DNA of 27,163 bases from a virus (Duplodnaviria; Heunggongvirae; Uroviricota; Caudoviricetes), in the IMG/VR virus record IMGVR_UViG_2531839527_000008. The stretch is one strand, 5' to 3'. How positions within the stretch are numbered: position 1 is the first letter of the stretch; each line of letters starts with the position of its first letter. The position numbers were made by a program, and so were the translations under genes. The notes beneath the pieces are model-generated. The model did no database searches and was not told the DNA's origin. It saw nothing but the letters and a program-made list of their open reading frames with translations. Of the stretch, positions 1 through 423 are shown one piece after another.

Positions 1-265
1 GGCCTGAGTTTTTTAAGTGACGTAAAACCGTGTTGAGGCCAACGCCCATAATGCGGGCAGTTGCCCGGCATCCAACGCCATTCATGGCCATATCAATGAT
101 TTTCTGGTGCGTACCGGGTTGAGAAGCGGTGTAAGTGAACTGCAGTTGCCATGTTTTACGGCAGTGAGAGCAGAGATAGCGCTGATGTCCGGCAGTGCTT
201 TTGCCGTTACGCACCACCCCGTCAGTAGCTGAACAGGAGGGACAGCTGATAGAAACAGAAGCCAC
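1..265 (-). CDS. insA: IS1 InsA (transposition regulator), 3' end cut by window edge
   Basis: Minus-strand GTG start at 263..265 followed by codons for [22 protein letters not shown]..., matching remembered InsA; the ORF-track minus ORF 82..294 is a different frame. Confidence 0.75.
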
Positions 266-320
266 TGGAGCACCTCAAAAACACCATCATACACTAAATC
301 AGTAAGTTGGCAGCATCACC
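1..320 (-). mobile_element. IS1 insertion sequence, partial (left end with terminal inverted repeat; rest lies beyond window start)
   Basis: Reverse complement of 298..320 reads GGTGATGCTGCCAACTTACTGAT, the IS1 terminal inverted repeat as I remember it; the whole of 1..320 reads as the IS1 left end on the minus strand; the + strand has stops in all three frames. Confidence 0.85.
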
Positions 321-423
321 TAATGACGTCAGATTTGCCGTAAACCTGGATGCCTTATCGCGTAGCGGTGTAAAGGTCAACCCGGATGTCTTAATGCTCG
401 CACGGAAGAAAAATGATGGATAA
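321..423 (+). pseudogene. yfiR: yfiR 3' fragment (periplasmic repressor of DgcN), interrupted by IS1
   Basis: Frame ending at TAA 421..423 translates [33 protein letters not shown], matching the remembered YfiR C-terminus; the reading frame is cut off at the IS1 boundary 320/321. Confidence 0.7.

Follow-up and report, generated by a model that had tools for sequence, protein, structure and literature searches.

We found that IS1, together with a deletion at one of its ends, has removed most of yfiR from the E. coli chromosome that the window (the whole stretch of DNA analysed, 27,163 nucleotides) comes from, and that the yfiL-yfiR region in which this happened is a recurrent target of IS1. 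The allele is most simply explained by a simple insertion into yfiR that would have been followed by an IS1-mediated adjacent deletion. As to its effect, we favour near-neutral decay of the Yfi system at an IS1 hot spot, in which the output of the diguanylate cyclase DgcN would be low and constitutive or absent, and not strongly raised; for the history and this reading taken together we give a probability of roughly three in four. The yfiR gene is normally conserved. The 575-bp segment that is missing here is present at a coverage of at least 80% in 5,370 of 5,426 complete E. coli genomes and wholly absent from 45, and the window allele is the main loss allele among these 5,426 genomes.

In the stretches that were searched (1-700 and 1900-4600), the window is 100% identical to the chromosome of E. 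coli E1739 (NZ_CM180506.1), its position 1 lying at 2856597. E1739 is an ETEC strain that originated from diarrhoeal stool in Bangladesh. The initial annotation had taken positions 1..320 for the left end of IS1. This assignment is borne out by the left inverted repeat (IRL), by matches of 99-100% to genes that thousands of E. coli records annotate as IS1 transposase and by a base-for-base alignment with the IS1 copies of eight other genomes. Positions 1..320 are the IRL-side 320 bp of a full-length, 768-bp IS1 that lies on the minus strand and is cut by the window edge. The IRL itself (298..320, minus strand, read from the sequence; about 23 bp by the usual definition) ends in ...AGTAAGTTGGCAGCATCACC at 301-320, and it holds the inward insA promoter as well as an outward-facing -35-like hexamer. 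The start of insA is at 265 on the minus strand, from where the gene reads leftward past the left edge of the window.

The full IS1 copy occupies positions 3553-4320 of the extracted E1739 locus (L003), with its far end (IRR) at 3553. Both imperfect terminal repeats, GGTGATGCTGCCAACTTACTGAT and GGTAATGACTCCAACTTATTGAT, were found at the expected length of 768 bp. The insA and insB' frames, which IS1 joins by a programmed -1 frameshift, are both open, and PGAP labels the copy “IS1 family transposase, programmed frameshift”. It differs from an IS1A-type copy at 40 of 768 nt, and these differences are clustered at IS1 nt 91-476. The same 40-difference copy occurs at the locus in E1739, E54, E1316, E1648 and E1654.

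Immediately after IS1 come the last 33 codons of yfiR, as had been claimed. The remnant (321..423, plus strand) corresponds to nt 417-519 of the 519-nt gene and is 100% identical to K-12; it begins with the third base of codon 139 and continues through codons 140-172 to TAA. Alignment of 1..423 to IS1 and to the K-12 yfiR-yfiN region, the check that had been proposed, confirmed both parts. PGAP describes the remnant as “YfiR/HmsC family protein, incomplete, missing N-terminus”, and it lacks its own start codon, signal peptide and promoter.

The two other genes of the system are intact, in agreement with the initial annotation: both are full length, and their RefSeq protein accessions are those of K-12. 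The dgcN (yfiN) gene (413..1639, plus strand; WP_000969032.1) encodes a diguanylate cyclase of 408 aa with a CHASE8 sensor domain (Pfam, E = 1.3e-33) and a GGDEF domain (E = 1.5e-43) that contains the GGDEF motif. The first 11 nt of dgcN overlap the end of yfiR, and since the gene is preceded by a GGAAG Shine-Dalgarno sequence of its own at 404-408, its translation would not need yfiR. Downstream, yfiB (1655..2137, plus strand; WP_000589847.1) encodes an OmpA-like outer-membrane lipoprotein of 160 aa (Pfam OmpA, E = 1.2e-17). Both proteins are identical to those of K-12. What the locus does not encode is the third component of a YfiBNR system, a periplasmic YfiR that has both a signal peptide and the complete DUF4154 fold, since only codons 140-172 are left. 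With 139 of 172 codons gone and neither a start nor a signal peptide, we infer that the allele is a YfiR null and that the loss is irreversible, which agrees with the earlier claim that YfiR function is lost. A G+C-rich, terminator-like hairpin with a 14-pair stem (2156..2187, scored on the minus strand) lies between yfiB and the 3′ end of rplS.

The original description of the event as IS1 inserted into yfiR stands for the right flank, which is yfiR, but not for the left. When the sequence left of the window was recovered, the other IS1 end was found there, but neither a target-site duplication nor the 5′ part of yfiR. In E1739, the IRR adjoins nt 356 of yfiL instead of yfiR, the yfiL sequence ...GCCAGCACAATACG running directly into the IRR tip GGTAATGAC.... 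The duplication of 8-9 bp that is expected for IS1 is absent in E1739, where the 9-bp flanks are CACAATACG and TAATGACGT. Its absence is no argument against IS1, because it is expected after an adjacent deletion and because the progenitor allele has an 8-bp duplication, TAATGACG.

Compared with K-12, 575 bp are missing (MG1655 2741716-2742290). They comprise 10 nt at the end of yfiL, all 149 bp of the intergenic region (G+C content of 33%) and yfiR nt 1-416, that is, codons 1-138 and two bases of codon 139. Reading into IS1 alters the tail of YfiL, which grows from 121 to 125 aa and ends in ...R-VMTPTY in place of ...R-L-N. The 575-bp segment does not occur elsewhere in the E1739 genome, and a query that joined it to 2 kb of the neighbouring prophage matched no plasmid. 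This joined query has a single matching place in E1739, in its prophage part, and two places in the 17 other genomes with the same prophage. Given these counts and the lack of a plasmid match, the 575 bp were deleted rather than relocated.

The history of the allele can be read from related genomes. A query made of IS1, the yfiR remnant, dgcN and yfiB was searched against the 5,426 complete E. coli genomes, and 42 of them have the identical right junction in one aligned piece. A left-junction query divides these 42 into 29 with the yfiL-IS1 junction (a single 400-bp match) and 13 with a simple insertion; of the latter, 11 were counted by their 983-bp spacing, P276M was opened directly and FG92-1 was assigned by elimination. 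The 29 deletion genomes include records named O6:H16, TW10598, B2C, FMU073332 and FORC_031 as well as many Bangladeshi E-strains. TUM9803 is among the simple-insertion genomes, and the three non-ETEC genomes of this kind that we opened (AR_0085, E308 and P276M) have an intact yfiL, then yfiR nt 1-424, IS1 and yfiR nt 417-519. The right junction of this simple-insertion allele is identical to that of the window, its left junction is at yfiR nt 424, and it has the 8-bp duplication TAATGACG. Relative to it, the window allele has retained the IS and kept the right junction, its left junction has moved with the orientation unchanged, and the DNA in between is lost.

We compared two ways in which the deletion could have arisen. 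In the simpler one, an ancestor would have gained an IS1 in yfiR with the 8-bp duplication TAATGACG, and the IRR side would then have lost 583 bp (the 575 bp and one copy of the duplication) by intramolecular transposition, with the IRL junction untouched. Such a deletion would fall in the lineage leading to the 29 genomes, O6:H16 ETEC included. Intramolecular transposition of IS1 and Tn9 is known to give rise to adjacent deletions, after which no direct repeats flank the element (PMC9330008). That the 29 and the 13 genomes descend from a common ancestor is probable in view of their identical junction, with the qualification that the site is a hot spot.

In the other, which we consider rather unlikely and less likely than adjacent deletion, two directly repeated IS1 copies, one at the 3′ end of yfiL and one in yfiR, would have recombined homologously, removing the DNA between them and one copy. 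The two routes have an identical product and are inseparable by sequence. Recombination would be in keeping with strain NT1N31, in which an IS1 of the same orientation, flanked by the duplication CACAATAC, lies in yfiL only 1 bp from the left junction of the window, and with the different, mosaic-looking IS1 variant of E1739. However, none of the complete genomes has a two-copy intermediate at the exact left junction. Moreover, the copy at the site is of the ordinary IS1B type in most ETEC that have identical junctions, and in the simple-insertion genomes as well, so the E1739 variant looks like the result of a later conversion between IS1 copies, after the insertion.

We also considered NT1N31 as the progenitor of the left junction and rejected it. 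Its IS1 is 1 bp off, has an 8-bp duplication of its own and lies upstream of an intact yfiR, and thus it represents an independent event. This pig isolate (L012 3345-7147) has two inverted IS1 copies, one at the 3′ end of yfiL and one at the 5′ end of dgcN, which bracket the intact yfiR; the pair and the enclosed gene resemble a composite-transposon-like unit.

It is very improbable that E1739 itself carries a simple IS1 insertion, with the 5′ part of yfiR and a duplication on its left side and a native promoter that continues to fire into IS1. This is the actual state of 13 related genomes, and the window taken alone fits both states. Nonetheless, the IRR at yfiL nt 356, the missing duplication and the genome-wide absence of the 575 bp speak against it in E1739, and 29 complete assemblies agree on the yfiL-IS1 junction. 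An assembly or annotation artefact, in which a collapsed IS1 repeat joins unrelated contigs, is a negligible prospect even though the at least 40 IS1 pieces per genome in these strains are a classic setting for misassembly, since 29 independent complete assemblies from several laboratories have both junctions in common to the base and the two flanks lie next to each other in all E. coli genomes.

The simple-insertion genomes also led us to suspect a compensatory frameshift in dgcN that silences the unrestrained cyclase, given that dgcN is frameshifted in AR_0085 and that 11 genomes match one base short. This was ruled out: the base missing from E308 and P276M belongs to the IRL of IS1, their dgcN is intact, and the dgcN frameshift occurs in AR_0085 only. 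The deletion in E308 and P276M changes TTGGCA to TTGCA inside the IRL and probably immobilises the IS1 copy, which is further degraded in P276M.

The yfiL-yfiR region has been hit by IS1 many times. Across the 5,426 complete genomes there are roughly 30 or more independent events, in both orientations. IS1 with its IRL facing dgcN occurs at or near the locus in at least 60 genomes (an estimated 14 events at least), and IS1 in the opposite orientation, for which a chimeric query was used, occurs in about 33 genomes (about 20 events, also estimated). As a control we used the raiA-pheL-pheA locus, where one genome and an estimated one event were found; this is a single locus, searched in one orientation, and its genes are under stronger constraint.

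The insertion sites cluster at yfiR nt 393-445, and there is another cluster near the 3′ end of yfiL. Base-level mapping of five insertions with the IRL facing outward placed them at yfiR nt 393 (XJ5.2), 417 (the window allele), 425 (O121 201805972), 428 (VG1046-3E9) and 437 (LR-24). These five are independent and fall within a 50-bp patch of yfiR. Other insertions near the site of the window allele have duplications of 8-9 bp, and events in the opposite orientation are located in yfiR at about nt 305-436. In E. coli HS, an IS1 lies about 610 bp upstream of the yfiR junction of the window.

IS1 hits yfiL as densely as it hits yfiR, and some of the deletions extend into dgcN. Alleles in which IS1 replaces the DNA from the 3′ part of yfiL to the 3′ part of yfiR arose independently at least five times, namely in the window allele, O121 201805972 (a 673-bp deletion), TUM1881, the S163-2 group and the 33-6 group. 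Given that the deletion endpoint of the window allele is 1 bp from an independent IS1 site in yfiL, the deletion target was a preferred IS1 site itself. The sequence TAATGAC in yfiR matches the IRR tip GGTAATGAC, as a 7-mer in an 80-bp stretch not unlikely to do so by chance. Insertions of more than about 790 bp, too large for IS1, split the 575-bp segment in one of 5,381 genomes. This scarcity indicates that other IS types hardly hit the segment.

What the allele does to DgcN depends on whether dgcN is still transcribed. In K-12 and relatives, YfiR directly represses DgcN (YfiN), and inactivation of yfiR raises c-di-GMP and cellulose and lowers motility (PMC4992967, PMC10127611, PMC13031359). 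Any DgcN made from the window allele would be free of this restraint. The promoter of yfiR and dgcN, however, appears to have been removed with the 575-bp segment, because the yfiL-yfiR intergenic region is where it would be expected. We word this cautiously, since a consensus scan of the K-12 intergenic region gave no plus-strand promoter-like site; it gave one site inside yfiR. Either way, dgcN and yfiB would have lost any promoter that was located between yfiL nt 357 and yfiR nt 416. Transcription could now reach them only by reading through IS1 from the yfiL side, or by starting at a weak hybrid promoter at the IRL.

Insertions of IS1 are known to be strongly polar, whichever way the element faces. 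If a promoter upstream of yfiL drives the operon, it is still present, and some read-through across IS1 is then possible. The initial annotation had cautioned that the insertion may be polar on dgcN and yfiB, a caution that is strengthened by the deletion of the DNA upstream of yfiR and by the 768-bp IS1 that lies between yfiL and dgcN.

The element offers a single outward promoter candidate, and it is a weak one. A consensus scan with a threshold of 9 of 12 gave no plus-strand promoter-like site between window position 1 and dgcN; on the minus strand, it recovered the inward insA promoter (CTGCCA-16-TATGAT, 313..286). Terminal repeats of IS1 carry an outward -35 element (PMC8764528). The candidate hybrid promoter of IS1 and flank, TTGGCA (307-312)-N17-CAGATT (330-335), spans 307..335 on the plus strand. 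It scores 8 of 12 and so falls below the threshold, and its -10 hexamer, CAGATT, matches at three of six positions. We also considered a bias in orientation as a sign of an outward promoter and rejected it, given that the opposite-orientation query found about as many events.

The loss of the DNA upstream of dgcN shifts the balance toward little or no DgcN output, rather than toward raised c-di-GMP. YfiN is natively expressed at a very low level; in K-12, a GFP fusion of YfiN expressed from the native promoter is too low to see (PMC4992967), and deletion of yfiR alone causes no growth arrest at native levels of YfiN (PMC10127611). [quoted passage not shown] Thus dgcN can stay active after an insertion in yfiR, which counts against low output. 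The original statement that the net effect is not predictable from sequence is upheld, as the effect on c-di-GMP is not readable from it.

Recurrent insertion could also reflect an adaptive gain. In that case, loss of YfiR would have been selected, DgcN would have been freed and transcribed from the hybrid promoter at the IRL, and the increase in c-di-GMP would have favoured adherence or persistence; the O6:H16 ETEC lineage would have been helped by this, and the recurrent IS1 events would be parallel adaptation. The many independent IS1 events in yfiR are compatible with this idea, as are the at least five IS1-plus-deletion alleles that spare dgcN and yfiB, the outward -35 in IS1 ends (PMC8764528) and the high c-di-GMP of yfiR transposon mutants (PMC13031359). 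There is also a reported precedent in the yfiR mutants of P. aeruginosa from cystic fibrosis lungs (PMC2837407, PMC3375315).

We nevertheless think an adaptive gain improbable. Insertions in the two orientations are about equally frequent, those in yfiL are as dense as those in yfiR, some deletions enter dgcN, almost no other IS type splits the segment, and the -10 elements at the five mapped IRL-out junctions are poor and dissimilar, the candidate in the window reaching 8 of 12. For these reasons, a preference of IS1 for the site, combined with tolerated loss, would seem to explain the pattern better than selection for an unrestrained cyclase. In addition, the E308-type progenitor has its 1-bp deletion inside the -35 hexamer, and UPEC are attenuated or disadvantaged by the loss of yfiR, as cited in PMC4992967 and PMC11495030.

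In its strongest form, the adaptive view would hold that some 16 or more independent events in yfiR, of which at least five independently became deletions that spare dgcN and yfiB, are parallel adaptation that locks DgcN in an unrestrained state. We regard this as a long shot. If true, one of these events would have become fixed at an early stage in the O6:H16 ETEC lineages that dominate worldwide, because it aids persistence in the gut or the environment, and the alleles would be an E. coli counterpart of the small-colony variants of P. aeruginosa yfiR mutants.

The allele bears on the biology of the strains that carry it. DgcN is the most robust diguanylate cyclase in E. coli (PMC10127611). 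By their names, the 29 carriers of the allele include the human challenge strain TW10598 and further O6:H16 ETEC, and all are without the only known inhibitor of DgcN. If dgcN is transcribed, these strains would have a hard-wired c-di-GMP input that could change motility, cellulose and curli, division under envelope stress and antibiotic tolerance, and carrying the c-di-GMP wiring of K-12 over to ETEC would mislead. If dgcN is silent, the lineage would be without the Yfi stress-sensing module. In either case, the yfiL-yfiR region is strikingly prone to IS1 and offers a natural case for telling insertion-site preference from selection.

Several aspects of the locus are known already: the mechanism of IS1 is textbook knowledge, YfiR is a well-studied regulator, and PGAP flags the gene as incomplete. 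The recurrent targeting of yfiL-yfiR by IS1 is more notable than the window locus itself. In the literature that we searched, we found no paper that links yfiR to IS1 or to ETEC. As in the adjacent deletions described for IS1 and Tn9 (PMC9330008), the element is intact, one junction is kept, the deletion starts from the other IS end and there are no direct repeats; the mechanism is nothing unusual.

The window allele shares with the published yfiR mutants, that is, P. aeruginosa small-colony variants, E. coli CFT073 and K-12, that the inhibitor is lost and that the cyclase and YfiB are intact. The published mutants, however, keep the operon promoter or have an outward-reading cassette, whereas in the window allele the upstream DNA is deleted and IS1 lies between yfiL and dgcN. 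Derepressed DgcN activity may therefore be offset here by lost transcription. Hybrid promoters formed by IS1 are known for afaA in ST131, blaTEM and acrEF (PMC8764528, PMC9330008), and in the window, too, an outward -35 is located 8 bp from the tip and faces dgcN. Such promoters require a usable -10 at the right distance, with a spacing of 16-18 nt, but the CAGATT of the window is not conserved among the other independent insertions.

The nearest natural parallel that we found comes from Shigella sonnei, which belongs to the E. coli species and infects the human gut as a pathogen; its yfiR-dgcN unit is naturally disrupted by IS elements (PMC12795559). There, ISSd1, ISSfl10 and IS21 separate yfiR from dgcN, and the published gene order includes yfiR, whereas the window has IS1 and a yfiR remnant.

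The remainder of the window (2228-27163) is a P2/186/PSP3-like prophage (Peduovirus) that is integrated in the rplS 3′ end. Strain E54 lacks the prophage, and homology to it extends as far as window position 2227, 15 nt inside rplS; the best phage match is vB_EcoM-613R3 (81% coverage, 96% identity). The prophage junction occurs in 19 complete genomes, of which only two (E1739 and E1535) also have the yfiR deletion.

Three genes of the prophage stand out. An ORF of 269 aa (2590-3399, plus strand) is located in very A+T-rich DNA between the prophage end and the integrase. It has no Pfam match and a weak PADLOC match to the HEPN-type model RTasHEPN (E = 1.2e-4), and this putative cargo gene may be a defence or abortive-infection gene. 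The second, an ORF of 334 aa (11902-12906, minus strand), is on the strand opposite to its neighbours and has the replication genes on one side and the portal gene on the other. Neither Pfam nor PADLOC gave a match for it, and its position corresponds to that of tin/old in P2. The third encodes a pentapeptide-repeat protein of 291 aa (21859-22734, minus strand; Pfam Pentapeptide_4, E = 3.9e-19). Situated on the opposite strand, between the genes for the tail and virion morphogenesis and those for the baseplate, it has the look of a moron.
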